Shown here: piece by piece, positions 11,081 through 27,274 of the stretch
Layout of the letters: each line of letters starts with the position of its first letter
Position numbering within the stretch: position 1 is the first letter of the stretch
Source of the DNA: Fimbriiglobus sp.
Lineage (GTDB): Bacteria > Planctomycetota > Planctomycetia > Gemmatales > Gemmataceae
Assembly (NCBI GenBank): GCA_035539575.1
Contig: DATLIF010000338.1
Coordinates: 1-41,633 of the forward strand
Length of the DNA: 41,633 bases
Direction: 5' to 3'
Program-made: the position numbers and the translations under genes
Notes under the pieces: model-generated
Told to the model about the DNA's origin: nothing
Database searches by the model: none
What the model saw: the letters and a program-made list of their open reading frames with translations, nothing else

Positions 11081-11110
11081 GCCCTCCCGTGTGAGGCCCG
11101 TCGGGGCCGG

Positions 11111-11302
11111 TTATCGCAGCATGCCTTCCAACATCGACAGCGCCCCGCCGCAGACCAGCAGGATCACGCCCAGGATCATGATGATTGCGCCGCAGCCGCA
11201 GCTCGGCCAGCAGCCGTAGGGGCCCTTCGGTCCCCACTGCTCATTGCCGCCGCCGACCCGACCGAAGAACCCGCCGCCGCCCAGTCCGCCGTCGGTGCTC
11301 AT
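11111..11302 (-). CDS. Tiny Gly-rich / Cys-rich membrane protein (63 aa)
   Basis: I start it at the internal Met: MSTDGGLGGGGFFGRVGGGNEQWGPKGPYGCWPSCGCGAIIMILGVILLVCGGALSMLEGMLR. That start is 29 nt downstream of the M48 gene stop on the same strand. The ORF track's longer version (to 11398) would overlap the M48 gene. Confidence 0.4.
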   Translation of the reverse strand: MSTDGGLGGGGFFGRVGGGNEQWGPKGPYGCWPSCGCGAIIMILGVILLVCGGALSMLEGMLR

Positions 11303-11331
11303 GAGACCGGCCCTCGTGGTGTTGCCGCCGC

Positions 11332-12105: not shown

Positions 12106-12235
12106 CGGTTGCCCCCGGGCTGATCGTCACCCGGCTCGCGACTCAATTGGCGGCCCGGGCGCAACCATGTTAGGCAGCACCTTGGACCAACGGGCAAGAT
12201 TTCGTACCGTTCTTCCGGGAGGACTGGGACCAAAC

Positions 12236-13249
12236 ATGACCTCGACCGACGCCATCGTAGTCGGGCAGGGCTTCGCGGGGACGGCCGTGGCTTGGGCCCT
12301 CCGGTGGTACGGGCACCGTGTCACCGTCATCGATCGGGCGTCCGATGTGACAGCATCCCGGGTCGCGGCCGGGCTGATTACACCAATCACCGGCCAGCGT
12401 CTGGCGAAGTCATGGCAGTTCGACGAGCTGTGGCCGGCGGCGACGGTGTTCTACCGACGGGTCGAGTCGGAACTTCGATCCCCGGTCCTCCACCTCGGCC
12501 CGTCGCTTCGACTCTTTGCCGACGCCGGCGAGGTGGCCGTCTTCGGCCGTCAGGCGAACCGCTTCCCCGAGTTGGTCGGCCCGCCCGATCCGCCGGTGGT
12601 CGTCGAAGCATTCACGGCCCCGCTTGGGGGGTTCCAGATGGCGCCCGCCGCGTGGCTGGACGCGACGGCGTACCTCGACGCTTCACGACGCCACTTCGAG
12701 CGAGAAGGCTGTTATCTCTCGGCGAAGGTGGACCCGAGTCACGACATCGAACTGGCCCCCGACTGGGTTCGACTGCCCCGTCTCGATATCCGCGGCCGCT
12801 GGCTCGTGTTCTGCCAGGGGTACGACGCGGCGGGCAATCCGTGGCTACCCGGCATGCAGGTCCACCCGGTCCAGGGCGAGATCCTGACACTGCGGATCGC
12901 CGGTCTGAGCGAGCGACGGGTCGTCCACCGGGGGGTCTGGCTCGCCCCGCGCGGCGGCGACACCTTCCTGGCCGGCTCGACGTACGACCGCGGCCGCCAC
13001 GACAGCGTCCCCACGACCCGCGGCCGGGACGAGATCTGTGCGCGAGTACGGGAGTTCCTCCGCCTGCCGTTTGACGTGATCGACCACCGGGCGGCGGTGC
13101 GGCCGGTCGCCCCCGGGAACCGGCCGGTGTTCGGTGTGAACCCCGAACGCCCTCAACTGGGTTACCTGAACGGGCTTGGCTCGAAGGGGGCACTCCAGGC
13201 GCCATACTTCGCCGACTTGCTGGCGAGCCGGCTGGTAAGTACCTGGTAA
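12236..13249 (+). CDS. FAD-dependent oxidoreductase (DAO family-like)
   Basis: N-terminal dinucleotide fold DAIVVGQGFAGTAVAWAL...VTVIDR. C-terminal LNGLGSKGAL, typical of the DAO family. I prefer ATG 12236 (GGGAGGA about 15 nt upstream) to the track's 12167. Confidence 0.75.
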   Translation: MTSTDAIVVGQGFAGTAVAWALRWYGHRVTVIDRASDVTASRVAAGLITPITGQRLAKSWQFDELWPAATVFYRRVESELRSPVLHLGPSLRLFADAGEVAVFGRQANRFPELVGPPDPPVVVEAFTAPLGGFQMAPAAWLDATAYLDASRRHFEREGCYLSAKVDPSHDIELAPDWVRLPRLDIRGRWLVFCQGYDAAGNPWLPGMQVHPVQGEILTLRIAGLSERRVVHRGVWLAPRGGDTFLAGSTYDRGRHDSVPTTRGRDEICARVREFLRLPFDVIDHRAAVRPVAPGNRPVFGVNPERPQLGYLNGLGSKGALQAPYFADLLASRLVSTW

Positions 13250-13300
13250 GAAAGCCGCATACCTGATCGCGTGTGATCGCAACCAACAAGGGTCGTGCCG

Positions 13301-14092
13301 ATGGACTTGCAACTGACGGGCGACACGGCCGTGGTCTTCGGCGCGGCGCGGGGGCTGGGGTACGCGATCGCGGCGGCGTTCGCGGCCGAGGGGGCACGGG
13401 TGGTACTTGCCGACGCATCCGCCACGGTGGCCGAGGCCGCACGCGCCGTCCCCGACGCCCGATCCGCCGTCGTGGACGTGACGGATTACCCGGCGGTGCG
13501 GGCCTACGCCGAGCGACTCTTGTCCGAGCCCAGCGGCGTGCATCACGTCGTGTACGCGGTCGGGGTCGGGTCAGGGAAGTTCGGGTTCCCGTTCTGGAAC
13601 CTTGACCCGGCGGACTGGGACCGGGTGCTGCGGGTGAACCTCGTCGGGGCGGCGAACGTGGCCCACGCCTTCGCCCCGGCCATGGCCGCGGCCCGGCGGG
13701 GGACGATGGCGTTCCTCTCGTCGGTGGCCGGGCAGATCGGGTCGCAGTCCGACCCGCCCTACAGCGCCGCCAAGGCCGGGCTGATCAACTTCGCCCAGTG
13801 TGCGGCCAAGGACCTGGCGCCGTTCGGCGTGCGGGTGAACACGCTCTGCCCCGGCATGGTGCAGACGCCGCTGAACCGATCCGTCTGGCAGTCGTGGGCG
13901 GACCGCCAGCCGGCCGACGCGCGACAGTCCTACGAGGAGTGGACGGCGGAAAAGATCCGCCGGCTGGTCCCGCTCAACCGGTGGCAGACGCCCGAGGACG
14001 TGGCCGCGATGGCGGTCTTCCTGGCCTCGCCGCGGGCGCAGAACGTCACCGGCCAGACGATCAACGTGGACGGCGGATACGTCATGAGATGA
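13301..14092 (+). CDS. Short-chain dehydrogenase/reductase (SDR) family oxidoreductase
   Basis: TAVVFGAARGLGYAIA cofactor motif, SSVAG, catalytic YSAAKAG, PGMVQTP. Alternative GTG start at 13295. Confidence 0.9.
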   Translation: MDLQLTGDTAVVFGAARGLGYAIAAAFAAEGARVVLADASATVAEAARAVPDARSAVVDVTDYPAVRAYAERLLSEPSGVHHVVYAVGVGSGKFGFPFWNLDPADWDRVLRVNLVGAANVAHAFAPAMAAARRGTMAFLSSVAGQIGSQSDPPYSAAKAGLINFAQCAAKDLAPFGVRVNTLCPGMVQTPLNRSVWQSWADRQPADARQSYEEWTAEKIRRLVPLNRWQTPEDVAAMAVFLASPRAQNVTGQTINVDGGYVMR

Positions 14093-14114
14093 CGGCCCCG
14101 CCCCATCGAATCAG

Positions 14115-15494
14115 TCACCGGACCTGGAGTTGCGAGCGGCCGCGAGGCAAATCGAAACAGACGACAACGTCACGGCCGTCACGCCGCCAGGTGCCGGATT
14201 TCAGGTCTAGCGGCCTCGACACCTCACGCAGGGCGGCCGCCTCCTTGCCCGTCGTGATCCGCGGCGCGGCGTCCCCGGCAGACTCCACCTTCAGGGTGAA
14301 CCGCGGGCTGGCGAACGGAGCGTCCAGCGCGACCACGCCGTCCGCGTGCCCGATCCGCGTCAACTCCTTCGCCGCCCAGTACCTGGCGATCTCGCTGAGC
14401 TTCATCCACAGCAGGTGGTCGTACCGCTTGTGCAGCCGACGGACCGCCTCCTGAAATACCTTGAACCCGACCTCCTCGCCGTTGAAGTAGATGCCGGTCC
14501 AGTGGCAGACCAGGCAGGCCGGCTCGCCCCGCTCGACCACGTCCACCAGCCGGCCGGACTTCAGGTCCGCGGTGATGAACTTGTCCACGCTGCCACGGTC
14601 GGAGCAGTCCCAGCCGCCGGTCCAGTCGCCGGTGCAGCCGATGACAGACACCACACACTTCGGGTCAGGACCGTCCAGGCCGGAGACGTTCTCGACCCGC
14701 GGGGCAACGCTCCGGTCGCCCCGGTCGTACAGGTGGCGGAAGTAGTGCGGAACCTCCGCCTTGAAGACGTCGCGGCACGACTCCAGCGTGGCCCGTGATA
14801 ACTCCGGGAGAACCCTGCCGGCGAACCCGCCGGGCGTGGTGATCCCCTCACACGGCAGTCCGACGTTCTTGAGGATCTTCAGCGCGTAGGCCATGTAGTC
14901 GGCCAGCTCGTCCGCCGACCGGCCGACGGTCCAGTCCCAGTTCTCCTGATACCGAATGCTCCGTTCGGGGTGCGGTTGGCCGGTTTTCGTGTCGATGACC
15001 CAGGTGTGCGTGACCATCTCCGGGTGGATGTCCCAGTCCGACAGCAGGCGCTTGCGGACGAGATCCAGGCTGTTGTCGAGGGCCTCGGCCGTCCAGCCGG
15101 GGAGGACGCGGTCGAGCCGGCCGACGCACGCCGGGTACGGGACGACGCTGTACTTTCCCTTGACGCCGTGTTCGCCGCACCAGTCGGCGAACTTGCGGAC
15201 GAAGTCGTCCGGGATCTCGTTCGGCCAGTCGCGCCACGGCTGCCGCCATTCCCTCTTCTTGCCCCAGGCGGCGGCGAACTGCGGGATCGCGAACTTGTTC
15301 AGGTTCACCAGGCAGGTCGAGTCGTCGATGATGAACGACACCGGCACCCGGCCCTGCGGGTTGAGGACCGTCACGCCCTTGTCGCGGGCCGGCCGGTCGC
15401 CGGGCACCTGGGCGAACACACCAGAGGTGAGGCTCGCCGCGCCGAACGACTGGGCCGCCGTCCGCAAGAAGTGCCGCCGCGTAACCTGCTCCAT
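14115..15494 (-). CDS. Tat-exported hypothetical protein (459 aa), possibly a carbohydrate-active/deacetylase-like fold
   Basis: Twin-arginine signal TRRHFLRTAAQSFGAASL when started at Met 15494. That start leaves 16 nt to the upstream gene, whereas the track's 15554 would overlap it. I recognise no named family; the fold suggestion is weak. Confidence 0.7.
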   Translation of the reverse strand: MEQVTRRHFLRTAAQSFGAASLTSGVFAQVPGDRPARDKGVTVLNPQGRVPVSFIIDDSTCLVNLNKFAIPQFAAAWGKKREWRQPWRDWPNEIPDDFVRKFADWCGEHGVKGKYSVVPYPACVGRLDRVLPGWTAEALDNSLDLVRKRLLSDWDIHPEMVTHTWVIDTKTGQPHPERSIRYQENWDWTVGRSADELADYMAYALKILKNVGLPCEGITTPGGFAGRVLPELSRATLESCRDVFKAEVPHYFRHLYDRGDRSVAPRVENVSGLDGPDPKCVVSVIGCTGDWTGGWDCSDRGSVDKFITADLKSGRLVDVVERGEPACLVCHWTGIYFNGEEVGFKVFQEAVRRLHKRYDHLLWMKLSEIARYWAAKELTRIGHADGVVALDAPFASPRFTLKVESAGDAAPRITTGKEAAALREVSRPLDLKSGTWRRDGRDVVVCFDLPRGRSQLQVR

Positions 15495-15510
15495 CGGACG
15501 GACCCCCTTA

Positions 15511-16578
15511 TCACCCGGAGAGCCAGCGGTCGAGGTTGTCGCGAACGAACTCATCGTCGGTCAGGTGCGGGTAGGCGCGGCAGACGCGGTCGATCTCCTC
15601 GGCCTGGCCAGGGCTGAGCGTCTCGCGCGGGTCCAGGCACCACGTCCCGGCCAGAATCCCCTGGCGGCGCAGCACCTCGTGGACCCCGGCAATGCAGCCG
15701 GCGAACCCGTTGGCCGCGTCGAAGATCGCCGCGTTGGCGTCGGTCAGTTCGCCGTTGAGGCGGAGCAACTCCGCCGGTACGGCCCCGCCGGCCGTTACCT
15801 CGTGGCAGGCCCGCAGCAACTCCACCGTCCGACGGGTCCAGACCGCCCACTGGCCGAGCAGCCCGCCGACGATCCGCCGCTCGACCTTCTGGACGCAGTT
15901 CTGGAACCGGAACGGCGTCACCAGGTCGAGCACGATGTTGTCGTCGTTCCCCGTGTACAGGGCGATATCGTCGCGGCCGGCCTCGACCACCGCCCGCACC
16001 ACGTCGAGCGTCTGGTAACGGTTGAACGGCGCGATCTTGACCGCGACCACGTTCTCGACCTCGGCCAGCCGCCGCCAGAACCCGAACGGCAGCACACGCC
16101 CGCCGACCGCCGGCTGGAGGTAGAAGCCGACGACCGGCAGGACCGCCGCCAGCCGCCGGCAGTGGTTGAGGAGCCCGTCCTCGGTCTCGGCCTGAAGCGC
16201 CCCCAGGCTCACCAGCACCGCGTGGTAGCCGCACTCGCGGGCCAGTTCCGCCTCGGCGACCGCCTGTCGGGTCGGGCCGCAGGCACCGGCAATCCGCACG
16301 ACCGGCTCCGGCCGGCGGCGGTCGGCCCGGTCCATCTCCTCGGCGACCAGTTCCAGCACCGGCCGCAACAGGGCGTGCTTCGGGTCGCGGATGGCGAACT
16401 GCGTCGTGTGGACGCCGACCGCCAGCCCACCGGCCCCAGCGTCAAGGTAGTACCGGATCAATACCCGCTGACGGCGCTCGTCGAGCCGCCGGTCGGCTGT
16501 CAGCGCCAGCGGGCAGGCCGGGATCACCTGCCCGCGCCGCAGGGCGCCACCGACCCGTGAGTCAAGTCGTATCGTCAT
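15511..16578 (-). CDS. DapA/N-acetylneuraminate-lyase-family (class I aldolase) protein
   Basis: TIM-barrel-like pattern AGGLAVGVHTTQF, VIGFYLQP-like VVGFYLQPAVGG, and a candidate Schiff-base lysine in VVAVKIAPF. 355 aa. Confidence 0.65.
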   Translation of the reverse strand: MTIRLDSRVGGALRRGQVIPACPLALTADRRLDERRQRVLIRYYLDAGAGGLAVGVHTTQFAIRDPKHALLRPVLELVAEEMDRADRRRPEPVVRIAGACGPTRQAVAEAELARECGYHAVLVSLGALQAETEDGLLNHCRRLAAVLPVVGFYLQPAVGGRVLPFGFWRRLAEVENVVAVKIAPFNRYQTLDVVRAVVEAGRDDIALYTGNDDNIVLDLVTPFRFQNCVQKVERRIVGGLLGQWAVWTRRTVELLRACHEVTAGGAVPAELLRLNGELTDANAAIFDAANGFAGCIAGVHEVLRRQGILAGTWCLDPRETLSPGQAEEIDRVCRAYPHLTDDEFVRDNLDRWLSG

Positions 16579-16627
16579 GGGAGTTCGTTTCGGCTCGCTC
16601 GGGAAGTACGGTCGGGGGACTCGGCCT

Positions 16628-18790
16628 TTATCGCCCGCCGGGGTCTCTACGCTGGAGCGGGCCGATGTACTCGGTCGCGATCACCACGTCGTCGAACCAG
16701 ACCCTGCTGACGTGCCCCTTCACCGCTTTCGTTATGTAGACGTACAGCCAGACATAATTGAGATTCAACTCCTTTGCGGTCCGCCAGCGGAAACCATCGA
16801 ACGGGGCGCCGCCCTCCGGCACGGTGAACGACTCCGGGCCGCTCTTCGCGTCGCTCCACCGGATCCCTTCGCCCCCTTCACCGCGCTGGAACTTGTCGTA
16901 TACCCACTTCCCCTTCGGGAAGCCCTTGCCGAGGTGGCCGACCGACTTGCCGTCGATCCACAGGGCCGCCTCGCCGTTAGAGTCGCCGACGTCGTTCATC
17001 TTTACCATGAACTCGACGCACACCCACTTGCTGCGCTCGACCTTCAGCTTCGGGTCGCGGATGAAGGTGTTGCCCCAGGTCTGCCCCCTCGGCGGGCTGC
17101 CGCGCATCTCGCACCAGTACGTGTAGAAGTCCCAGACCCAGTTGTTGCCGAACGGCTCGACCCCCACGGTGAACGTCTTGTCGCCGGCCGGCCGCAGCCC
17201 GGCCCCGCCCTGCGGCCACGACGTCGGCGGGTTGTAGCCGCCGATGTTCGTGCCAAAGTGGTGGATCGGGGCACACTCGGGGTCAAACTTGACGTAGAAC
17301 CGGGCATAGAGTTTGTCATAACCCGGTTTGAGCCGACGAAACAGTTGCCCGCCGGTCCCCTGTCCGCCGACGTGCGTCACCAGCAGCGATTGCTTGCCGC
17401 CGCTACCTGCCGGCACGTCGGCGGACAGGGAAAGGTTGTCCGGCCCGGAGGCCGTCTCCCAGCGGCTCGTCACCCCGGCGAGGCCCTTGGCCTCGAAGTT
17501 CTCCGCGAAGATGACCCGTGGGTCTTTCTCGATGCCCGCGTCGCCGGGATACCCGTCCGCGATGCCGGCGGTGTTCGGCTTCGCGTCCTGCTTCACCTGT
17601 CGCAGTCGCTCGAGTCGTTCGCGCCCGCGGCGGTCGATCCAGGACGTGCGGCACTCCTCGCACAGTTCCTCGAAAAGCCGGATCGCCTCGTCCGTCTTGC
17701 CGGCGCGGGCCAGCGCCTCCGCTTCCCTGAACCGCTCCTCGCCGGTGGTCAGCCCGGCGGCCATGATGCGGATGGCCTCCTCGCGGGTGACGTTCGACGG
17801 CACCTTGGCGAGCACCGGCGGGTTCGGGTCGGTGAGGACGCCGTAGGCAGCCGGGACCCGCTCGCGGAACAGCCGGCCGCGCATGTCCTGCTGCATATTG
17901 AACGCGTCCCCGCCCTGGCGGCTGCCGGCCGGGTCGATGTCCGCGATCGCCAGGCCGTCATCGCCCTCGGCCTGCGCGACGATCTTGCCCTGCGGGGAGA
18001 TGATCATGCTCCCGCGGCCGCGCTGGGCGACCACCAGCCAGACGAAGTTCTCCACCGCCCGGGTGCGGAACGCGGCCAGGCTGACGTCGCCGTCCCCGAT
18101 CGCCGCCCCACCGAGGGTCGGGTGGAAGATCACGTCCGCCCCCTGCAGCGCCAGACACCGCGGCGCCTCCGGGAAGACCATGTCGTAGCAGATCAGCATC
18201 CCGACGGTGCCCAGGCCGGGCGCCTCGAACACCGGGAACCGGTCGCCGCGGGCGTGGCCCTGCTCGGGCAGCGGGAGGTTGACCTTGTGGTACCGGCCGA
18301 TCTCCTTGCCGTCCCGCCCCAGCAGGAACGCGGTGTTATGCGAGGTGCCGTCCGGCTCGACGGTGTCGTTGCAGCAGACGAGGTACATGCGGTGCTTCGC
18401 CGCCGCCTTCCCGAGCCGGTCGAGCATCCGCGTCACCGCCTCGGGCAATACCTCCCGAAGCCGGGTCGGGTGGGCCACCTCCCACTTGAGCAGGCCGAGC
18501 GTGTCCTCCGGCAGCGCCACCGCGCCGCAGCCGGCCTCCCCGGCCTTGTGGACGAGCTTCTCCAACTCACCGAGTGAGGCATCGACGCGGGCCAGCGCCT
18601 CGGCAGGCGTCAGCCGGTAATCGATGGTCCGGTTCCGCGGCTGGGCGGCCGCGACGCGTATCACCGACTTGCCCTTCGGGGCCGGCGGGGCGTCGTCGCC
18701 GGCACTGGCCGGTGTGGGCTGCCCAACACCCAGGAACAGTGCGCAGAGGACGGAAAGGCACGGCTTACTCAGCAGGTGGAGCATGTCCAT
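16628..18790 (-). CDS. Secreted fusion protein: carbon-nitrogen hydrolase (nitrilase superfamily) domain plus a C-terminal ConA-like/polysaccharide-lyase-like domain
   Basis: Signal peptide MDMLHLLSKPCLSVLCALFLG from Met 18790. C-N hydrolase E-K-C triad context: VALPED, YHKVNLP, MLICYDMVFPE. A helical linker follows. The ~380-aa C-terminal beta-rich domain (YARFYVKFDPECAPIHHFGTNIGGYNP...WVCVEFMVKMN...LWIDG...VWFDDVVIA) resembles the lectin/lyase fold. Confidence 0.75.
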   Translation of the reverse strand: MDMLHLLSKPCLSVLCALFLGVGQPTPASAGDDAPPAPKGKSVIRVAAAQPRNRTIDYRLTPAEALARVDASLGELEKLVHKAGEAGCGAVALPEDTLGLLKWEVAHPTRLREVLPEAVTRMLDRLGKAAAKHRMYLVCCNDTVEPDGTSHNTAFLLGRDGKEIGRYHKVNLPLPEQGHARGDRFPVFEAPGLGTVGMLICYDMVFPEAPRCLALQGADVIFHPTLGGAAIGDGDVSLAAFRTRAVENFVWLVVAQRGRGSMIISPQGKIVAQAEGDDGLAIADIDPAGSRQGGDAFNMQQDMRGRLFRERVPAAYGVLTDPNPPVLAKVPSNVTREEAIRIMAAGLTTGEERFREAEALARAGKTDEAIRLFEELCEECRTSWIDRRGRERLERLRQVKQDAKPNTAGIADGYPGDAGIEKDPRVIFAENFEAKGLAGVTSRWETASGPDNLSLSADVPAGSGGKQSLLVTHVGGQGTGGQLFRRLKPGYDKLYARFYVKFDPECAPIHHFGTNIGGYNPPTSWPQGGAGLRPAGDKTFTVGVEPFGNNWVWDFYTYWCEMRGSPPRGQTWGNTFIRDPKLKVERSKWVCVEFMVKMNDVGDSNGEAALWIDGKSVGHLGKGFPKGKWVYDKFQRGEGGEGIRWSDAKSGPESFTVPEGGAPFDGFRWRTAKELNLNYVWLYVYITKAVKGHVSRVWFDDVVIATEYIGPLQRRDPGGR

Positions 18791-18824
18791 CGACCCCTTG
18801 GGGCGTTGCAAGGCGATCATAGTG

Positions 18825-20630
18825 TCAGCGGCCCTTCGAGGGTGGCTTCGGTTCAACAACTTCGGGGAGCGCCTCGCCCTCACGCAGCCGCCACCAGCGC
18901 TGGCCTTCCAGGCCGGTGAAGGTTTGCTCGCGTCCCGAGGGCCAGCGGACCGTGACGCGCTCCGCCCGCTTCGCCGCGCCGAGCCCGACGAGCAAGCGTC
19001 GCTCGCTCGCCGACAGATAGCTGCCGCCGCCGTTCACGAAGCGGACCTGCTTGCCGGCCGTGGTTTCGATCTCAACGCGCGCGCCGATCGCGTTGCGGTT
19101 GCTCGTCTTGCCATCCCCAACCAGTTCTAGACGCAGCCAACCGTGGGCCGTCTCCGTGCGATTGTGTAAGAGCGCGATCGGGCCGCCGACGTGGCTGAAG
19201 GCCAGATCGGGCCGGCCGTCGTTGTCGAAATCCGCCCAGGCCAGTCCGCGGCCGACGCGCGGCTCCCGGAAATAGACACCCACCTCGGCCGAGCCGTCCC
19301 GGAAGCGCCCCGACCCCTGACCGAGGAAAAGCTGTGCCTCCTGGGCGTAGGGCGCGCTATAGACCTCGGCGGCATGGCGTTCGACGTGACCGTTGGCGAC
19401 GGCCAGGTCGAGCCGGCCGTCCAGATCGACGTCACAGAAGACCGTGCCGAAGCCGAGCCGGTTCAGACTCGGCACACCCAGGCCGGAGCGGTGCGTCCCG
19501 TAGTGGAAGTGCATGCGGCCCGCGTTCAGGAAGAGGACGTTCGGCACGCCGTGAAAATTGGTCACGAACAGAGAGGGCCGTCCGCTGTCGTCCAGGTCGC
19601 CCGCGTCGACGCCCATGCCCGCGATGTTCTCGCCGCTCGACCCCACGGCGCAGCCGCTGAGCATGGCCTTCTCGACGAACTTTCCGCCGCCCTGGTTGTG
19701 GAAGAGGTAGGCCGGCCGCATGTCGTTGGCCGCGTAGATGTCGATCCGCCCGTCGTCGTCCAGATCGGTGAGAACCACGCCGAGCCCGGGCGCGGGCGAC
19801 GCGGCGGCGACGCCGGACGTTTCAGTCACGTCGGAAAACTTCCCGTCGCCCTCGTTGCGATAGAGCCGGTGCGTCACCGCGGCGAACTGACTCGGCATGC
19901 AATTGAAGAGCACTTTCTCGGGGCCGTACTCGCAGAGTGGGTAATTCGCGAGATCGACCTCGACATAGTTGCACACGTAGAGATCCAGGTCGCCGTCACC
20001 CTCGATGTCGCCCCAGCCACAACTCGTGGCCCAGTGTGGGTCGTGCAGGCCACCCGCCCTGGCGGTCACGTCCGCGAACCGCCGCCCGCCCCGGCCGTCG
20101 GGTTCGTTGTGATAGAGGATGACGCTACCCCAACAGGTCACCACGAGATCGTCGAAACCATCGCCATCGAAATCGCCGACCGCGCAGCCCATGCCGAAGC
20201 CCGCGCGGGCCAGGCCAGCCGCCTCGGTGACGTCGGCAAACGTCCCGTCGCCGGTGTTCCGGTAAAGCTTGTTCGTGGGGAGCAGACCGTCTGCGGACGA
20301 GGACCGGACGGGGCCGTCCTGAACGCAGAACAGGTCGAGCCAGCCGTCGGCGTCATAGTCGATCCAGCCCAGTCCGCTGCCCATCGTCTCGAGGATGTAG
20401 TTCCGCGGCGTGGCCGGGTCGAAGTGCCGGAACCCGATCCCACCGACGGCGGCGACGTCCACGAACCAGGGGACTCCTGGGGTCTGCGTCCCAGAGAGCG
20501 GCGGCGCGGCGACAGTGTCGGAAGACGGAGTGGAGGGGAACAGGAGAACGAACACCAGGGCAACCCCGGCAAGGGCAAGGGCCGTTGCCGCACTCAGGCG
20601 AAGCCAGATCGTAGGAACGGTTGGCTTCAC
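18825..20630 (-). CDS. CRTAC1-family protein (FG-GAP/VCBS repeats plus ASPIC/UnbV C-terminal domain)
   Basis: Repeated DxDxDGxxD motifs (DYDADGWLD, DFDGDGFDD, DIEGDGDLD, DLDDDGRID, DVDLDGRLD, DFDNDGRPD). UnbV-type C-terminus NRNAIGARVEI...GGGSYLSASERRLLVGLG...VTVRWPSG. N-terminal signal anchor. Confidence 0.9.
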   Translation of the reverse strand: MKPTVPTIWLRLSAATALALAGVALVFVLLFPSTPSSDTVAAPPLSGTQTPGVPWFVDVAAVGGIGFRHFDPATPRNYILETMGSGLGWIDYDADGWLDLFCVQDGPVRSSSADGLLPTNKLYRNTGDGTFADVTEAAGLARAGFGMGCAVGDFDGDGFDDLVVTCWGSVILYHNEPDGRGGRRFADVTARAGGLHDPHWATSCGWGDIEGDGDLDLYVCNYVEVDLANYPLCEYGPEKVLFNCMPSQFAAVTHRLYRNEGDGKFSDVTETSGVAAASPAPGLGVVLTDLDDDGRIDIYAANDMRPAYLFHNQGGGKFVEKAMLSGCAVGSSGENIAGMGVDAGDLDDSGRPSLFVTNFHGVPNVLFLNAGRMHFHYGTHRSGLGVPSLNRLGFGTVFCDVDLDGRLDLAVANGHVERHAAEVYSAPYAQEAQLFLGQGSGRFRDGSAEVGVYFREPRVGRGLAWADFDNDGRPDLAFSHVGGPIALLHNRTETAHGWLRLELVGDGKTSNRNAIGARVEIETTAGKQVRFVNGGGSYLSASERRLLVGLGAAKRAERVTVRWPSGREQTFTGLEGQRWWRLREGEALPEVVEPKPPSKGR

Positions 20631-21811
20631 CGGGTCACCCCGTCCCGCCCTGCCAGGCGTCGATGCTCGGCCGCCTTCGCCGACTCGCCCTTCTGGCCGT
20701 AGTACGAAGCCAGAAGCCGGTGTGCGGCAGCGTACCCCGGGTCCTCCCTGAGTACGACCTGTAGTGAAGCGAGTGCTTCCTCGGCCCGGCCGCTACCGAA
20801 AAGTAGTTCGGCGCGCCGGACCCGCACGGCCAGGCTCTCCGTCTCACCCGGTTGGGCTGTGTCTTTCTCGAAGTTCTCCCGCTGAACCCCGGCCAGCACG
20901 CGCTGGGCTTCCTCGGTCTGGCCAGCCCGGGCCAGGGCCAGACCGAGGTGGTAGCGGGCTTCCTTGTGTGAGCCACCACCCTCCGCGATCACCCGGCGCA
21001 GAAGCGGTATCGCCCGTTCCGCTTCATCCGCCTCGTAGTGAAGGACCGCGAGGAGCAGGAGACCGGGCGTGAACTGGGGCTGGCGAGCAAGAAGCTTGTT
21101 GAGAAGTGCCCGCGCTTCCGCGTTGGCGTCGCGGGCGTGGCACACCCGCGCCTGAAGGTAGAGCAATTCCTGATCGTCCGGTTGTCGCTGAAGATACCGG
21201 CGGCAGACGTGATCCGCGTCTTCGAACCGACCACTCGCCAGGCTGAACCAGACGACCTTTCTCGCCGTCGAGTCGTCGTTGGGCTCCAACTCGATGACGC
21301 GTCGCCCGTCCTCCAGCGCCAGTTCCTTGAGCCGCTGCTGTTCGTCCAGGGGCTTGACCCGCTGTGCACTCTGGTGCCGCAGGTCCATGCGAAGCCTGTG
21401 GGGTTCCGCCTGCTCCGGACGCAGTTGACACCAGTGTGTCAGAACCTGTTCGGCCTCGGCCGGGTTCTCCGTGCGGAGCAGTCCGACGGCCAGCGGTTTG
21501 AGGAGTTCGACGTTGTCCGGGTCGTACTCAAGCGCGCGGCGAAGCCCCGACTCGGCGTCACGATAGCGACCTTGCCGGGCCAGGCGGACGGCCTCCTGTC
21601 CCTCACGACTCGCCTCCGATCGCTCCCAGACGAGCCAGGCGACCACGCTCAGCGCCAGAACCGTCGCCGCCAAGCCGCCACGCAGGAGCCAGCGGCGAAT
21701 GCCCCGAGCGGACTGTCCGGGACGAGGGGTCGGCAGTTGCTTCGCGTGGGAGGTAGCCATGTTTGTGCGTGTGCCCCTCCCCCAGGCAGGCGACTCAGGG
21801 AGCCATCGCAT
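20627..21811 (-). CDS. Membrane-anchored tetratricopeptide-repeat protein
   Basis: N-terminal TM (LAATVLALSVVAWLVW) followed by TPR-like helical repeats (AEA...L...P....A...LG pattern). The stop overlaps the CRTAC1 start by 4 nt. Alternative start at ATG 21760. Confidence 0.75.
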   Translation of the reverse strand: MRWLPESPAWGRGTRTNMATSHAKQLPTPRPGQSARGIRRWLLRGGLAATVLALSVVAWLVWERSEASREGQEAVRLARQGRYRDAESGLRRALEYDPDNVELLKPLAVGLLRTENPAEAEQVLTHWCQLRPEQAEPHRLRMDLRHQSAQRVKPLDEQQRLKELALEDGRRVIELEPNDDSTARKVVWFSLASGRFEDADHVCRRYLQRQPDDQELLYLQARVCHARDANAEARALLNKLLARQPQFTPGLLLLAVLHYEADEAERAIPLLRRVIAEGGGSHKEARYHLGLALARAGQTEEAQRVLAGVQRENFEKDTAQPGETESLAVRVRRAELLFGSGRAEEALASLQVVLREDPGYAAAHRLLASYYGQKGESAKAAEHRRLAGRDGVTR

Positions 21812-21820
21812 TGCGACTCG

Positions 21821-22267
21821 TCATTCGATGACCACGGTGATGTCGTTGTTTTCCTTCGCCTCGATCTTGTACCTCTTCTTGAGCGTGAACGCCGGCCTTC
21901 CACCCCCAACGGGTGGGCCGCCAGTCCCGTCATCGACGGCACCGGCGGGACGGATGGTCACCTTGAATTCTCCCTCGACGGCACCGGCGAGCTTTTCGCT
22001 GCGCGCCCGGCTCGTGAGGGCGACGGTGTCCAGCTTGAACGTACCGTCCTCCTTGATGTCCCCGTAAGCCCTCTGCTCATCACTGGTGACCGACGTGAAG
22101 GTGATGAAACCACCCTTGAGCGGCTTGCCGTTCTTCAGCACCACCTTGCCCGTGACGGTGTACGTCTTGGGCAACTCCTCTTCCGGGGTGCAGCCTGGCA
22201 ACACCACAAGGATCAGTCCGAACCACAACGCGCCGAGAACCGCACGTCGCAATCCCGATCGAGACAT
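21821..22267 (-). CDS. Small lipoprotein with a carboxypeptidase-regulatory-like (Ig-like beta-sandwich) domain
   Basis: Started at Met 22267: MSRSGLRRAVLGALWFGLILVVLPGC (lipobox). Then YTVTGKVVLKNGKPLKGGFITF...DGTFKL, typical of the CarboxypepD_reg-like fold. Such lipoproteins commonly sit next to DUF1559 genes in Planctomycetes (from memory). Confidence 0.7.
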   Translation of the reverse strand: MSRSGLRRAVLGALWFGLILVVLPGCTPEEELPKTYTVTGKVVLKNGKPLKGGFITFTSVTSDEQRAYGDIKEDGTFKLDTVALTSRARSEKLAGAVEGEFKVTIRPAGAVDDGTGGPPVGGGRPAFTLKKRYKIEAKENNDITVVIE

Positions 22268-22386
22268 GGTCAATCTCCGAACCGGATCTGGACAATGAAG
22301 CCATCGCAGCGACAACAACCTGCCGCCCGGATGCCCGCTGTCACCGGGTAGCCGGGCGACAGACCACTTCCGCCCCATGCAGTCAA

Positions 22387-23373
22387 TTACCAGTCACTCG
22401 CCACGACAAGCCCGTCGGACGGGTGGCAGACGATGGCCCAGGTCGCGGCGCTGACGCCGGCACTGACGAAGCGAATGCTGCCGTCTCCCAGGCAAACCTG
22501 AATGCCCGCACTGTGGCCGGACTGGGCGCGGGCCGAATCGCAGCCGTTGTTCCACACGGGCATCACCTGGAACTTCAGACACTGGGAGTAGCCGGTAATT
22601 TCCCACGGCTCCTTGTATGCGGCGTTGGTGCAGACGATCGGGCGCAACCAACTGTTGGATTGGAACCACGAGCTGGTGGCTACGGTGCTGGTCGGGCTCA
22701 ACCGGCATGTGGCGTACATCTCGGTATAGAAGACCGTGTTACTGAGGCCGTCGGGGGTCGAGCCCGGAATCTTGGTGTAACCCTTCACCCCGTTCGGGTT
22801 CCAGGTGGTTTCGGTGTTGATGCCGTCCCCGAAGACGTTGTAGTTGGCCGCGTAGGACCCAACCGTGCCGTTCGCCTGGATTAAAAAGCTGCTGGCCGCG
22901 GCCTTGCCGCTCTGGTTCGAGGGGTCCGAGGGGCAGATGTAGGTCTTGGGCGCCACGGTATACGTGAACGGGTCGGTACTGGTGGTGCCGCCGTTGTGCA
23001 GGTCCGGATTCAGTTGCTTGTAGGCATTGTCCTGCTCGATGAAGGGCAGCAGGTGCTGGAAGATGGTGAAGTTCTTCCCGCGGTACGGACTCGGGGTCTT
23101 CATCGTCCACCAAAAGTTCTCCAACGGGTACTGGTTAGCCTGGGCGTTGGGCACGACAGCCGGCGGCAGAACGCCGTACGCGTCGTTCATGTTGTGGGTG
23201 GCCAGGCCGATCTGCTTCATGTTGTTCATGCACTGGGTCCGGGCGGCGGCCTCGCGGACCTTCTGGACGGCGGGGAGCAGGAGCCCGATGAGGATCGCGA
23301 TGATCGCGATCACCACCAACAACTCGATCAGCGTGAAGCCGGCACTCCGGCTGGACTTGAGCGGTCGGACCAT
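22387..23373 (-). CDS. DUF1559-domain protein with a prepilin-type N-terminal cleavage/methylation motif
   Basis: [50 protein letters not shown], the hallmark N-terminus of the family. C-terminal H..G.QV.LGDGS.RF motif. I start it at Met 23373 (MVRPLKSS). Confidence 0.9.
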
Positions 23374-23663
23374 GACGGATACCTCGGGAAATGGCGTCCA
23401 CATCGGAAGGAAATGAGGCCCACCACGACTACGACTCCGCGTTCGAGCGAAGCAGGATGACGACTGCCTGGCCGGCCGGCTGGATCGTCGCGTCGGCGGC
23501 CAGTTGGATCAGAAGGTACCCGACCTGCTGGAACCCCCTCAATCCACTTTGTGGCTTGGCAATTCCATTTTTGCGACACCACCCCTTTCGCGGCTGTGTC
23601 CGTCCGGGTACGCTGTCCGGCGCATCGGTTCGACTCCCACTGCCAGCCACACAGGAACAATCA

Positions 23664-24827
23664 GTGCCACGGCCGCCGCACGTCGCACTGCTCATCGAGA
23701 CCTCACGAGCGTACGGCCGGAGCATCCTCCAGGGCGTCGTTCGGTATCTGCACGAGCACGGGCCGTGGTCCGTCTACATCCAGCCGCACGGGCTGGAGTC
23801 GCCCCCGCCCCGGTGGCTCAAGAGCTGGCGCGGTGACGGCATCCTGGCCCGGATCAACGACCGGCAGATGGCCCGGGCCGTGCAACAAACCAGGCTGCCG
23901 GCCGTGGACCTGAGGTTCACCGTTCCGGACCTGAGGCTGCCTGCCGTCGGGATCGACAACCGGGCCGTCGTCCGGCTCGCCTACCAGCACCTTTCGGACT
24001 GCGGCTTCCGGCAGCTCGCGTTCTGCGGACTACCGCGCGGGCAGAGCGTCTGGATGGACCTCCGCAGCGACCTCTTCCGCGACCTGGCGCGGGCCGACGG
24101 CCGCCCGTGTCACGTCTTCGAGGGCCCCGAGCGGAAGTCGGCCGCGACGTGGGAGGAGGAGCAAGAGGCGATCGCCGCCTGGGTGACTCGCTTGCCCCGG
24201 CCGGTCGGGGTGATGGCCTGCAACGACGACCGGGGGCAGCAGGTCCTCGACGCCTGCCGGCGGGTCGGCGCCCTCGTGCCGGAGGAGGTGGCCGTCATCG
24301 GGGTGGACAATGACGAGATCCTTTGCAGCCTGTCCAGCCCGCCGCTGACCAGCGTCGATATCAACACGGTCCAGGTCGGGTTCGAGGCCGCGGCCCTACT
24401 GGACCGGCTGATGGCCGGCGAGCGGCCGGCGGCCGAGCCGACCCTGTTGCCGCCCCGGGGCGTGGTCCCGCGGGAGTCCACCGACGTACTCGCGACGGAC
24501 GATCGCGAGCTGGCCGCCGCGGTCCGGTACATCCGCGACCACGCCTGCGGCGGGCTGCGGGTGAAGGAACTGGTGCGCAAGACCGGCGTACCGCGGCGGT
24601 CGCTGGAGCGGCGGATGGAGAAGCTACTGGGCCGCTCCCCCAAGGAAGAGATCACCCGCGTTCAGATCGAGCGGGCCAAGCGGCTCTTAACCGAGACGGA
24701 CCTGTCGGCGGCCACGGTCGCGGAGAAGTGCGGCTACAGTCAGCCAAAGTACTTCAGCCACGTCTTCCATTCCAAGGTCGGCCTGACCCCGGGTGCCTAC
24801 CGGCGGAATGCGACCCAGCCCGGCTGA
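23664..24827 (+). CDS. XylR-type transcriptional regulator (periplasmic-binding-protein-like sensor domain plus AraC-family HTH)
   Basis: VALLIETSRAYGRSILQGVVRYLHEHGPWSVYIQ is the typical XylR-family N-terminus. The C-terminal AraC HTH reads ATVAEKCGYSQPKYFSHVFHSKVGLTPGAYR. I prefer the in-frame GTG 23664 (387 aa) to the track's 23391. It is divergent from the DUF1559 operon. Confidence 0.85.
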   Translation: MPRPPHVALLIETSRAYGRSILQGVVRYLHEHGPWSVYIQPHGLESPPPRWLKSWRGDGILARINDRQMARAVQQTRLPAVDLRFTVPDLRLPAVGIDNRAVVRLAYQHLSDCGFRQLAFCGLPRGQSVWMDLRSDLFRDLARADGRPCHVFEGPERKSAATWEEEQEAIAAWVTRLPRPVGVMACNDDRGQQVLDACRRVGALVPEEVAVIGVDNDEILCSLSSPPLTSVDINTVQVGFEAAALLDRLMAGERPAAEPTLLPPRGVVPRESTDVLATDDRELAAAVRYIRDHACGGLRVKELVRKTGVPRRSLERRMEKLLGRSPKEEITRVQIERAKRLLTETDLSAATVAEKCGYSQPKYFSHVFHSKVGLTPGAYRRNATQPG

Positions 24828-24943: not shown

Positions 24944-27160
24944 TCACTTCAGGATCACCACCTCCACCTTGCCGTACCGGTCGAGGATGTTCACCCCGAC
25001 GTCTCCACCGTGCCGGTGGAGCCGGACATCGATCGAACCGTCGCCGACGCGCAGCTTGCGGATGTGGACCTCGTTGAGCCAGTCCGGCAGCAGGGGGATG
25101 TCCAGGTGGACTCGCCCCTCCGCGGCCTGGATGCGCAGCCCCAGGCAAGATTGCAATAGCAGGAACGCGGCCCCGGACGCCCACGCCTGCGGGGAACACG
25201 CCACGGGATAAAGCGTCGGCCCCTCACCGGTCCGCCGGCCGAACCCGCAAAACAGCTCCGGCAACCGCCGCAACTCGACGAACAGGCTGGCGTCGAACAA
25301 TCCGGTGAACACCTTCAGCACCGCCTCCTTGAGGCGATACCGGGACATGCCGGCCCCGATCAGGGCGTTGTCGTGCGGCCAGACCGACCCGTTGTGGTAC
25401 GACATCGGGTTGTATCGGGCCTCGCCCTCGGCCACCGTCCGTACGCCCCAGCCGGAGAACGAGCGGTCGGCCAGGAGGGTGCCGGCGGTCCGCAGGGCCC
25501 GGTCCGGGGTCGCGATGCCGGCGTACAGGCAGTGCCCCGGGTTGGAGCTGCGGACCCGGCACGGCCGCTTCTGCCCGTCCAGCGCCAGTGCGTAAGTGCC
25601 CAGGTCGTCGCACCAGAAGGCCCGCTCGAATCGTTCGCGGAGGTCCTCCGCCTGCCGCTCCAACTCGGTCGCCCGGGCCGGGTGCCCCAGCCGGCCCGCC
25701 AGTCCGGCCGCCGCGCGCCGCGCCGCGTAGACGTACCCCTGCACCTCGCACAGCGCGATCGGGCCGTCCGCCGGACTGCCGTCCGCGTGAAACACCGAGT
25801 CGTGCGAGTCCTTCCACCCCTGCTGGACGAGCCCGTCGGCCGACCGGCGGTGGTACTCGACGAACCCGTCCTCGTCCGGGTCGCCGTACTCGTCGATCCA
25901 ACTCAGGGCCTGCTCGACGTTCGGCCAGATGGACTCGACGAACGCCCGGTCGGCGGTTCGCTCGTCGTACGCCCCGGCCAGCATCACGAACAGCGGGGTG
26001 GAGTCCACACTGCCGTAGTACCGGCCGAACGGGATCTCCCCGAGGGCGGCCATCTCGCCCTGTCGTGTCTCGTGCAGGATCTTGCCCGGCTCGGCGTCCT
26101 GTTCCGGGATCAGGGCGTCGGCCTGGGTGGCGGCCAGGTAGCCGAGGACGCCCCGCGCCACGTCGGGATCGGCCCAGAGAACCTGGAGGGCGGTGATGAT
26201 CCCGTCCCGGCCGAACGGGGTGCTGAACCACGGCACCCCGGCATACGGGTACAGGCCGTGGGGCGTCGGGGAGACCATCATGCTCAGGTCCGCCTGGCTG
26301 CGGTTGAGCCAGTCGTTGAACAGCTCGTTGTCGGTGTAGACGGTGCAGGCCCGTTCTCGGGCGGCCCGGACGCTCTGCGCCGCCTGGACCAGCGCGGGCT
26401 CGTAGCCGACGGGGTTCGGTCGGCGGTCGCCGGTCTCACAGGTGACGGCAAAGTGAACTGTTGCCTCCCCGTGAGGGGCCAACTGAACGCGGAACTGGGC
26501 GTCAGCGCCGGTGAGCCGCTCCGGCGGCGGGTCGAACGCCAGCCGGGTCCGCCGGACGACGCCGTCAAGCCCTTCGTACCCGAGGGCCACGCTCGCGCCC
26601 TCGACCGCGGGCGGGAGGTCTCGCCCCCGCCGGGGCCGCGTCGTGCCGCGAACCTCGAAGATGTCCGCGTAGTCCGCCTCGAAGTGGAAGGAGAACGTGA
26701 CCTCGATCGGGTCGCCGCCATAGTTCCGCAGCCGCACCCGCTGCTGGCAGGCGGCCTGCCACACCACGATCCCGCGGAAGACGTGGACCGTGCCCCGCGG
26801 CACGGTGATCCGGTCGCCGTCCCGGGCGTCGGGGTTGGTCAGGTCCACGGCCAGCAGGAGGTTGTCCTCCTTGGTGGTGGAGCTGAGGAACAGCGGCCGG
26901 TCGCGGCCCAGGCGGAACACCAGCCGCGACAGGAACCGGGTCCCCTCGTGGTAGAGACCCTGTTCGCGCATGCCGACCGGGCGGATGTCGCCGTGGTTGT
27001 CGAAAACGGCGAACGTGTCCCCTTGTTTGAGCACGCGGTCGCGCTCGCCGCCCGGCGGGGCGGGCGCGGTCACGTAGTAGGGATCGTCGTGGGCCAGGCC
27101 GCCGTCGGCTCCGACGGCCGCACCGATCTGGGCCACACCGCCGCTGGACTCGTCGCTCAT
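24944..27160 (-). CDS. Amylo-alpha-1,6-glucosidase / glycogen-debranching-enzyme-like protein (GDE N-terminal plus GDE_C-type (alpha/alpha)6 domain)
   Basis: GDTFAVFDNHGDI, GLYHEGTRFLS, YAGVPWFSTPFGRDGIITALQ, EPGKILHE, VEYHRRS..GLVQQGWKDS, YHNGSVWPHDNA. The motifs and their order match this family. I prefer Met 27160, which is preceded by a GGGAGGGG Shine-Dalgarno-like run. Confidence 0.85.
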   Translation of the reverse strand: MSDESSGGVAQIGAAVGADGGLAHDDPYYVTAPAPPGGERDRVLKQGDTFAVFDNHGDIRPVGMREQGLYHEGTRFLSRLVFRLGRDRPLFLSSTTKEDNLLLAVDLTNPDARDGDRITVPRGTVHVFRGIVVWQAACQQRVRLRNYGGDPIEVTFSFHFEADYADIFEVRGTTRPRRGRDLPPAVEGASVALGYEGLDGVVRRTRLAFDPPPERLTGADAQFRVQLAPHGEATVHFAVTCETGDRRPNPVGYEPALVQAAQSVRAARERACTVYTDNELFNDWLNRSQADLSMMVSPTPHGLYPYAGVPWFSTPFGRDGIITALQVLWADPDVARGVLGYLAATQADALIPEQDAEPGKILHETRQGEMAALGEIPFGRYYGSVDSTPLFVMLAGAYDERTADRAFVESIWPNVEQALSWIDEYGDPDEDGFVEYHRRSADGLVQQGWKDSHDSVFHADGSPADGPIALCEVQGYVYAARRAAAGLAGRLGHPARATELERQAEDLRERFERAFWCDDLGTYALALDGQKRPCRVRSSNPGHCLYAGIATPDRALRTAGTLLADRSFSGWGVRTVAEGEARYNPMSYHNGSVWPHDNALIGAGMSRYRLKEAVLKVFTGLFDASLFVELRRLPELFCGFGRRTGEGPTLYPVACSPQAWASGAAFLLLQSCLGLRIQAAEGRVHLDIPLLPDWLNEVHIRKLRVGDGSIDVRLHRHGGDVGVNILDRYGKVEVVILK

Positions 27161-27274
27161 GTCCCCTCCCTGGGGCGAACTCGCCCCGGTCGGGGGCACG
27201 CGGCTATTAATAGAGCCGATACGCCGCTTCCGGACAGCGTTACGTCCGTCTCACCCACGTCGAAGGAGTTCGCC

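Follow-up and report, generated by a model that had tools for sequence, protein, structure and literature searches.

We identified a run of seven minus-strand genes, named G1 to G7 in transcription order, together with a divergent gene for a XylR-type AraC regulator, in a 41,633-nt stretch of contig DATLIF010000338.1 (hereafter the window) from Fimbriiglobus sp., a member of the Gemmataceae. The window has about 68% G+C and is planctomycetal in look, with genes of the tetrahydromethanopterin (H4MPT) pathway, DUF1559, Ser/Thr kinases and a giant subtilase, and its proteins have their closest named relatives in a Fimbriiglobus sp. metagenome-assembled genome (MAG), at 81-91% identity. An earlier reading made from the sequence alone (the sequence-only reading) had taken the run for a polysaccharide-utilisation locus (PUL). 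A more fitting description is a recurrent DUF1559-lipoprotein-TPR-CRTAC1 module, of which the run is one mosaic instance with lineage-specific enzyme cargo; it would then be a regulated locus of the substrate-utilisation type built from uncharacterised parts. The features are collected in Table 1; L and P numbers below denote the related loci and contigs that were compared.

Table 1. Position, strand and basis of identification of the features in and around the G1-G7 run.
Feature	Position	Strand	Basis
XylR-type regulator, 387 aa	23664..24827	+	Pfam, GTG start
Divergent intergenic region, 290 nt, presumed promoter and operator	23374..23663		function presumed from position only
G1, DUF1559 protein with prepilin-type N-terminus, 328 aa	22387..23373	-	Pfam, NCBIfam
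G1-G2 spacer, 119 nt, weak hairpin at 22316-22300	22268..22386	-	hairpin scan, sequence reading
G2, small lipoprotein, probably beta-sandwich, 148 aa	21821..22267	-	lipobox-like motif, homologues beside DUF1559
G3, TPR protein with N-terminal membrane anchor, 394 aa	20627..21811	-	Pfam TPR, hydrophobic segment
G4, CRTAC1/ASPIC-UnbV FG-GAP beta-propeller with N-terminal signal or anchor, 601 aa	18825..20630	-	Pfam
G5, predicted secreted amidase/jelly-roll fusion, 720 aa	16628..18790	-	Pfam, model, homologues
G5 N-terminal domain, nitrilase-superfamily amidase, aa 46-290	17921..18655	-	CN_hydrolase match
G5 C-terminal domain, beta-jelly-roll, ConA/lyase-like, aa ~405-720	16631..17578	-	predicted model, sub-threshold profiles
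G6, divergent DHDPS/NAL-superfamily class I aldolase-type enzyme, 355 aa	15511..16578	-	PF00701
G7, predicted Tat-exported protein of an unnamed large family, 459 aa	14115..15494	-	twin-arginine motif, homologues

A listing of open reading frames (ORFs), together with a reading of the sequence at each junction, placed the seven genes between 23373 and 14115 with intergenic gaps of 119, 9, -4, 34, 49 and 16 nt, reproducing the layout given in the sequence-only reading. G2 starts at the ATG at 22267 with GGAG upstream, the GTG start of G4 shares 4 nt (GTGA) with the TGA stop of G3, and the start codon of the regulator gene is a GTG at 23664, preceded by AGGA and 290 nt away from the G1 start. 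The G+C content at third codon positions (GC3) was 0.82-0.90 for G1 and G4-G7, the five frames passing the filter; the listing did not include those of G2 and G3. The window holds a second long co-directional run, made up of plus-strand coding frames (586-10771). Since tight co-directional runs are ordinary in this genome, the meaning of the layout must be judged from other genomes, and it is recurrence there, not packing, that sets the G1-G7 run above chance.

The domain families named in the sequence-only reading were upheld for DUF1559, TPR, CRTAC1, CN_hydrolase, DHDPS and XylR, whereas CarboxypepD_reg for G2 and a PL14/lyase assignment for the C-terminus of G5 stayed below threshold. G1 is a DUF1559/SBP_bac_10 protein with a family match (PF07596, 104.5 bits against a cut-off of 23.3), a prepilin methylation motif (PF07963, N_methyl, 32.7 against 21.2; TIGR02532, 26.6 against 16.3) and an H-X9-DG motif (TIGR04294, 22.6 against 19; also read directly). 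It was rejected as a major pseudopilin GspG of the type II secretion system or a type IV pilin, the TIGR01710 score being 30.9 against 88.85 bits and the PilA score 24.9 against 400, over residues ~10-60 only. G2 has a lipobox-like VLPGC downstream of a hydrophobic stretch, and its homologues adjoin DUF1559 genes in L012, L170, L166, L167 and L104, with more distant ones in L168 and L169. Its PF13620 (CarboxypepD_reg) score was 14.3 bits against a cut-off of 32.3 (E=0.054), four of seven G2 homologues matched the same family weakly (best E=0.007), and a PHROGs search with G2 gave no match; to judge from the profile scores, a CarboxypepD_reg-like fold is plausible. G3 matched TPR_19 (94.5 bits) and other TPR families in Pfam and has a hydrophobic segment at about aa 41-62. 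It also resembles PilW, Tgl, GltE, BcsC and PgaA-type TPR proteins weakly, all far under the NCBIfam cut-offs. G4 belongs to the CRTAC1/ASPIC-UnbV family, with FG-GAP_3 (156 bits) over six stretches and UnbV_ASPIC (70 bits) at aa 514-576 in Pfam, and its close homologues carry the NCBI name 'CRTAC1 family protein'. The G4 family has more than 7900 homologues, and in some of these the TPR partner is part of the same protein; such TPR-CRTAC1 fusions include P0261-P0267, P0299 and a single fused ORF in L012.

These four protein types are found together elsewhere. Five loci anchored on G4 homologues were read (L168, L169, L170, L171 and L172). A TPR gene precedes the CRTAC1 gene in all five, directly or fused, and the identical 4-nt overlap between the two genes is seen in L171 and L172. 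A DUF1559 gene lies no more than 3.2 kb from the G4 homologue in four of them (L168, L169, L170 and L171), accompanied in L168-L170 by a small G2-like protein. DUF1559 genes number 68-91 per planctomycete genome and are spread evenly around it (PMC10632474, PMC8567305). As a control, 165 loci anchored on G5 or G7 (1.99 Mb) were searched with five DUF1559 and three CRTAC1 queries; DUF1559 was present in 4 of these loci and CRTAC1 in 2, both times with DUF1559 adjoining. Altogether, about five of six independent lineages have a DUF1559 gene no more than a few kb from CRTAC1. Planctomycete genome sizes of a few megabases put the density of DUF1559 genes at roughly one per 80 kb, and at this density such a proportion is unlikely by chance (rough binomial probability <1e-3). 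The partners of the module vary, being G5-G7 in the window and GH-like and S9-like proteins in the Pirellulaceae. In L169 a giant S8 protein adjoins the DUF1559/TPR-CRTAC1 module. L172 includes three CRTAC1-type genes and a stand-alone 344-aa CN_hydrolase inside 14 kb (1144-4328 and 10001-14518), which hints that the association of CRTAC1 with C-N hydrolases extends beyond the G5 fusion.

The order G1-G2-G3-G4-G5 recurs in three loci, namely L166, L167 and the more distant L104, which is the sole locus among 80 metagenome G5 loci with G1-G5 in the window order (49-71% identity). L167 continues with G6 and then a convergent gene, and L166, from the Fimbriiglobus MAG, reads G6-G1-G2-G3-G4-G5; both are without G7. 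On the 3' side of G5 in L166 (8336-10935) are a Meth_synt_2 gene (cobalamin-independent methionine synthase-like) and then a gene for a 485-aa protein of no Pfam family, which carries a second copy of the C-terminal jelly-roll of G5, 33% identical. The contig with the closest G7 (P0002, 88% identity) has CRTAC1, DHDPS (G6) and G7 without G5. G7 is immediately upstream of G5 in L165, and in L119 two Gfo/Idh/MocA genes and a xylose-isomerase-like TIM gene stand between them. The families are more thoroughly rearranged in L012 and L170 of the Pirellulaceae, where a DUF5009-like gene, an apiosidase-like/DUF6298 (GH-like) gene, G7 (66%) and an S9-like hydrolase are followed by a stand-alone secreted G5 C-terminal domain (40%) and a TPR-CRTAC1 fusion, and then by convergent lipoprotein and DUF1559 genes with a divergent XylR-type regulator (57%). 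The L012 arrangement is the only one among 80 G7 genome loci with any other cluster gene. When the neighbours at 80 G5 loci were clustered, none was broadly conserved outside one closely related groundwater clade. Elsewhere, homologues of G5 and G7 have as neighbours Gfo/Idh/MocA proteins, xylose-isomerase-like TIM barrels, 3-keto-disaccharide hydrolase domains, FAA hydrolases, FGGY kinases and GH130, which look like sugar catabolism. The recurring unit is thus a core module of DUF1559, lipoprotein, TPR and CRTAC1 with changing enzyme partners. G6 and G7 join or leave it between close relatives, a mosaic pattern that argues for functional linkage.

The N-terminus of G5 appears signal-peptide-like by eye. 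The N-terminal domain is a member of the nitrilase (C-N hydrolase) superfamily, with a CN_hydrolase match (PF00795) of 110.3 bits against a cut-off of 23.2 and the Glu-Lys-Cys catalytic triad, of which E95 is invariant and K169 and C201 nearly invariant over 33 homologues. The model of G5 aligned with amidases and carbamoylases at target TM-scores of 0.6-0.8, and the best sequence and structure matches of the domain were N-carbamoylputrescine amidase, D-carbamoylase, aliphatic amidase and formamidase; all NCBIfam matches were far under cut-off, leaving no equivalog-level call. A helical linker (aa ~336-402) joins this domain to a C-terminal one of about 315 aa, modelled as all-beta with a predicted local distance difference test (pLDDT) score of mostly 85-97. 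Membership of the C-terminal domain in polysaccharide lyase family PL14 was rejected, the window protein scoring 18.6-20.1 bits against a gathering threshold of 27. PL14 nevertheless matched nine of ten members of the domain family (best E=6.7e-6) and the Cip1-like family and PF14099 four of ten each, all sub-threshold, and a comparison with Cip1 in the PDB was marginal (E=0.08). The domain and its stand-alone homologues share with the PL14, PL20 and Cip1 jelly-roll lyases sub-threshold matches to PF21294, PF21340 and PF14099 and, with Cip1, a C-terminal VWFDD motif, but every score is under the gathering threshold.

Searched by fold against the PDB, the whole G5 model gave nothing but nitrilase-fold structures in the top 50, which did not place the C-terminal domain; in BFVD its matches were CN hydrolases, chlorovirus proteins and phage proteins annotated as ConA-like lectin/glucanase. 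On the model, with indirect support from the BFVD matches, we accept a ConA/lyase-like jelly-roll, in line with the ConA/lyase-like domain of the sequence-only reading, at the level of fold, and we do not accept PL14 membership. The domain may only bind carbohydrate rather than cleave it. Stand-alone homologues of it occur in L012, L170 and L166, and the fusion itself is kept in proteins of about 700-740 aa from Planctomycetota and Verrucomicrobiota (773 matches). The extracellular Vanin/pantetheinase/biotinidase proteins of animals are similar in being exported nitrilase-fold amidases with an E-K-C triad and a C-terminal beta-rich domain, and a weak pantetheinase match was found (E~0.008). 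They differ in that the C-terminal domain of G5 is ConA/PL14-like and occurs alone too, the likeness is marginal, and the nearest amidase domains are prokaryotic.

G6 has no signal peptide and matches PF00701 (DHDPS) with 41.5 bits against a cut-off of 22.1. In the alignment with DHDPS, K181 of G6 falls at the position of the Schiff-base lysine, Y153 at that of the tyrosine, and T58-T59 at that of the GTTGE threonines; G6 has these features in common with the DHDPS/NAL superfamily (DapA, NanA, KDG aldolase, KdgD and L-KDA dehydratase), and they establish its membership. Unlike those enzymes it is about 60 residues longer, and a housekeeping DapA was rejected on the TIGR00674 equivalog score of 23 bits against a cut-off of 206. 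NanA was rejected as well, since the family profile gave NAL (8u8w) 29 bits and many DHDPS entries 30-39 bits. G6 falls in a subfamily of its own, of ~355-aa proteins (420 clusters at E<=1e-30), which is equidistant from DHDPS, NAL and L-KDA dehydratase. It is equally far from every characterised subfamily. The sialic-acid-like role proposed for G6 in the sequence-only reading and the N-acylated or aminated acidic sugar proposed there as the substrate both came from superfamily membership alone, and neither is supported by the analysis.

The N-terminus of G7 reads TRRHFLRTAAQSFGAASL, in which TRRHFLR is a twin-arginine motif. Two sources annotate homologues of G7 as 'twin-arginine translocation signal domain-containing protein', and PF10518 is present in one homologue. 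Export of G7 by the twin-arginine translocation (Tat) pathway is therefore predicted, in agreement with the sequence-only reading, and the absence of a known family was also confirmed, with no Pfam, NCBIfam, PHROG or PDB sequence match (the PDB by single-sequence and by profile search). The family is large, with 4381 homologues, the best 120 of which are 63-100% identical; in 80 genome loci the identity is 59-81%, and the hosts are Planctomycetota, Verrucomicrobiota, Bryobacterales and Poribacteria. The model (pLDDT 83) consists of a barrel followed by a beta-sandwich. Its fold matches are weak and comprise polysaccharide-deacetylase-family structures and the allantoinase PuuE, at query TM-scores of 0.35-0.39, with glycoside hydrolase barrels lower; the Pel-modifying enzyme PelA is also among the matches. 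D57, D58, H157, E159 and H163 are invariant, and the invariant IIDDST and H157-x5-H163 resemble, without being identical to, the Asp-Asp and His-x-x-x-His motifs of NodB. Deacetylase-like chemistry is a reasonable guess from the model, no more. In a survey of 80 loci of the G7 family (for example L001/L017 4027-7964 and L005/L016 7020-10994), the commonest neighbour was a giant PSCyt1/PSCyt2/PSD1 protein specific to the PVC group (the wider group to which the Planctomycetes belong), found in 13 loci, followed by DUF1501 in 11 and a PQQ_2 beta-propeller in 7. As an unusually conserved exported protein without an assigned function, G7 merits study by itself.

The regulator has the full XylR architecture, with a XylR N-terminal domain (PBP1_XylR, PF22177, 35.8 bits against 27), a periplasmic-binding-protein-like sensor (Peripla_BP_3, PF13377, 139 against 26.5) and a C-terminal AraC helix-turn-helix (HTH_18, PF12833, 75.9 against 33.6), and both its type and its divergent position 290 bp away are as the sequence-only reading had them. 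An orthologue, 57% identical, is divergent from the DUF1559 gene in the Pirellulaceae loci L012 and L170. The E. coli XylR-controlled xylose regulon has the same regulator architecture, divergent from the presumed target operon, but the targets here are not xylose transport or catabolism genes and no operator was found. A promoter scan of the 290-nt divergent region detected no sigma-70-like consensus above chance, and this region and its L170 counterpart contain just short direct repeats of doubtful meaning. The hairpin in the G1-G2 spacer has seven pairs, three of them G-C. Terminator-like hairpins in the region were not above chance (5 found, 6.1 expected), which makes an attenuator role for the spacer hairpin speculative.

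Around the run, a FAD-dependent DAO-type oxidoreductase and a short-chain dehydrogenase/reductase (SDR) converge on G7 (12167-14092), the SDR stop being 22 nt from the G7 stop. They were rejected as cluster members, as they are not near the cluster in any related locus (including L166 and L167) and P0002 has an 857-aa gene convergent on G7 instead; the two are probably unrelated to the cluster. Two flanking glycoside hydrolases of the alpha-glucan or compatible-solute type, a GH15/trehalase-like protein (8978-10771) and a GDE_N_bis and MGH1-like protein convergent with the regulator (24944-27199), are not near the cluster in related loci either, and the second was likewise left out of the system. 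Further away, a plus-strand run of H4MPT-linked C1 genes (3304-7131) encodes an ATP-grasp protein, methenyl-H4MPT cyclohydrolase (MCH, 371 bits), a RimK-like ATP-grasp protein and a CitG-like triphosphoribosyl transferase; it is typical of planctomycetes and unrelated to the G1-G7 cluster. The window also has a 2650-aa ORF (31293-39245) with an S8 subtilase, three PPC, Big_5, and IRG7-like galactose-binding and PQQ-like beta-propeller signals, and a 902-aa ORF (586-3294) with GC3 of 0.93 and a strong coding signal but no Pfam match at E<=0.001.

We tentatively favour the view that the cluster is an accessory, probably inducible envelope system that captures and processes a substrate with variable enzyme cargo. 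A conserved envelope module, exchangeable exported enzymes, shuffled order and a regulator orthologue together form the pattern of an accessory substrate-utilisation system, and this is the ground for a capture and processing model. The seven genes would be transcribed together, turned on by the divergent XylR-type regulator upon binding of a sugar-like effector. G1 would be a pseudopilin-like DUF1559 protein held by its prepilin-type N-terminus, G2 a small beta-sandwich lipoprotein of the envelope module, G3 a membrane-anchored TPR protein translationally coupled to G4, and G4 an exported FG-GAP/UnbV beta-propeller of the calcium-binding type, and the four together may capture or present an extracellular or periplasmic substrate. 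G5 would then act as an exported amidase whose jelly-roll binds or cleaves the polymer, and G7 as a Tat-exported, metal-dependent-deacetylase-like enzyme working on the same polymer, while the imported keto-acid product would be taken by the cytoplasmic class I aldolase-type G6. That the substrate may be a carbohydrate is suggested by the type of the regulator, the PL14 and Cip1-like signals, the deacetylase-like fold and the sugar-type neighbours of G5 and G7 elsewhere.

Several observations weigh against this model. Gene order is conserved for G1-G5 in L166, L167 and L104, and the families recur rearranged in L012 and L170, but the seven genes that the sequence-only reading had grouped as one system are not a conserved unit; moreover, the loci with the full order are from close relatives (86-91% identity), so that synteny there is weak evidence. 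Most homologues of G5 and G7 are in unrelated contexts, with 78 of 80 G5 loci and 79 of 80 G7 loci having no other cluster gene, and the G7 of the Fimbriiglobus MAG (81%) is on a separate contig (L006) among unrelated neighbours. L172 has TPR and CRTAC1 genes and no DUF1559 gene in its 21.8 kb, and in L168 and L169 the module is accompanied by kinases and by DUF1501 and S8 peptidases, respectively, not by sugar enzymes. Pfam found no transporter among the eight products or the flanking genes, though G6 is cytoplasmic. No carbohydrate-active enzyme (CAZyme) family exceeded its threshold in the cluster, where the PL14 signal falls short, the fold matches of G7 are weak, as their query TM-scores show, and neither an inverted repeat nor an operator was found in the 290-nt region or its L170 counterpart.

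Some of these points would be expected if the run were a chance or merely historical juxtaposition of independent units, that is, of a DUF1559-lipoprotein pair, one of about 70-100 in each planctomycete genome, a TPR-CRTAC1 pair from a very large family, and three unrelated enzymes, with the regulator acting on G1 only or elsewhere. The variable contexts of G5 and G7 fit such an origin, as do the large number and even spread of DUF1559 genes in these genomes, the absence of G7 from L166 and L167 and its solitary position in L006 and the P0007 contig, and the 119-nt gap with a weak hairpin after G1. We nevertheless consider it unlikely. The same families co-localise in varied orders and orientations in Gemmataceae, Pirellulaceae and unassigned metagenome contigs; DUF1559 is near CRTAC1 in four of the five G4-anchored loci and in both CRTAC1-bearing control loci against a low background; the regulator orthologue is kept beside DUF1559; and the gaps from G2 to G7 are just -4 to 49 nt.

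As to the PUL of the sequence-only reading, what can be kept is that the genes are linked beyond the window and that sugar-type neighbours are found elsewhere. Since a transporter and a SusC/D pair are lacking and no CAZyme scores above threshold, we can only infer 'glycan utilisation'. The cluster resembles the SusC/SusD PULs of Bacteroidota in having an envelope module that includes a lipoprotein, variable exported enzymes, a regulator of a sugar-responsive type and mosaic content. It differs from them in that the DUF1559, TPR and CRTAC1 proteins of the module bear no relation to SusC/D, a transporter of any kind is absent, and the evidence comes from genomic context. The TonB_dep_Rec, Plug and SusD families were not found by Pfam in the eight products and the flanking genes, and lacking the defining SusC/D pair the cluster is not a Bacteroidota-type PUL, though it is PUL-like in logic. 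Of the elements by which CAZyme gene clusters are recognised, a transcription factor is present, the sole CAZyme-like signal is the sub-threshold PL14, and a transporter is missing.

A bolder proposal is that the cassette is a PVC-specific capture or uptake apparatus, a counterpart of SusC/D based on pseudopilin-like proteins and present in many copies, each with its own cargo and regulator; we hold this to be quite unlikely. G1 shares the prepilin cleavage/methylation motif with pseudopilins of the GspG/PilA class and gives weak N-terminal matches to GspG, ComGC and PilA, but the likeness is limited to the first ~50 residues and far under the cut-offs, and the globular part is DUF1559. The N-terminus of G1 also weakly matches proteins C and D of the four-gene Verru_Chthon cassettes of Verrucomicrobiota. 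These cassettes are paralogous, multi-gene and PVC-restricted, as is the module described here, but the partners here are a lipoprotein, a TPR protein and CRTAC1.

It is also conceivable, if improbable, that the cluster serves the biogenesis of an envelope or surface structure, with G1-G4 building or stabilising a fibre or surface layer in the manner of the TPR lipoproteins PilW/PilF/Tgl in type IV pili, and G5 and G7 remodelling the cell's own polymers. The prepilin-type N-terminus of G1, the weak, sub-cut-off similarity of G3 to PilW, Tgl, GltE, BcsC and PgaA-type proteins, and the inclusion of PelA and polysaccharide deacetylases among the fold matches of G7 point in this direction. Lnt, the lipoprotein N-acyltransferase, is a nitrilase-superfamily enzyme (G5 scoring 48 bits against a cut-off of 133), and in Planctopirus limnophila two of the DUF1559 genes are essential (PMC10632474). 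A regulator of the sugar-sensor AraC type is nevertheless better suited to catabolism, and Pfam scans of the cluster and its flanks detected neither a pilus ATPase nor a platform protein, secretin or glycosyltransferase. A DHDPS-type enzyme in the cytoplasm does not fit with biogenesis either, nor do the sugar-catabolic genes beside G5 and G7 homologues elsewhere, and the variable enzyme cargo resembles an accessory catabolic trait. More improbable still is a nitrogenous, non-carbohydrate substrate, with G5 as an extracellular amidase or carbamoylase of small amides, polyamine derivatives or peptide-like compounds, its jelly-roll merely binding or anchoring, and G6 acting on an amino-acid-derived keto acid, in the way of other enzymes of the DHDPS family (hydroxyproline and pyruvate-aldehyde chemistry): the amidase, carbamoylase and formamidase matches of the G5 N-terminal domain, the DAO-type oxidoreductase and SDR converging on G7, Meth_synt_2 downstream of G5 in L166 and the stand-alone CN_hydrolase near CRTAC1 genes in L172 would accord with it, but in the Pirellulaceae the module is accompanied by the jelly-roll and not by the amidase, the regulator belongs to the sugar-binding XylR type, homologues of G5 and G7 elsewhere adjoin sugar-type oxidoreductases, isomerases and GH-like proteins, and the DAO-type and SDR genes are not beside the cluster in L166 or L167.

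DUF1559 is a hugely expanded family of unknown function whose genes are found around the genome, often flanked by genes with signal peptides (PMC8567305, PMC10632474, PMC2754498, PMC4807772). No paralogous family in planctomycete genomes is larger, and Planctopirus limnophila has at least two copies that are essential (PMC10632474, PMC8567305). Our literature search found no paper tying DUF1559 to TPR-CRTAC1 pairs or to enzymes of the G5-G7 type, and nothing linking UnbV/ASPIC/CRTAC1 or DUF1559 with polysaccharide utilisation. The cluster sets one DUF1559 gene in a recurring, regulator-linked context with assayable enzymes, and thus offers a testable entry to the functions of DUF1559, CRTAC1 and G7. 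Bacterial CRTAC1/UnbV-type proteins and the G7 family, with thousands of members about 60-70% identical over four phyla, are likewise uncharacterised. To our knowledge, PVC genomes are without SusC/D-type PULs. If the module is indeed a general substrate-acquisition device with exchangeable cargo, this would change the way in which catabolic potential is read from PVC genomes, and a pseudopilin-based uptake cassette, if true, would explain both the huge expansion of DUF1559 and the uptake of macromolecules by these bacteria.

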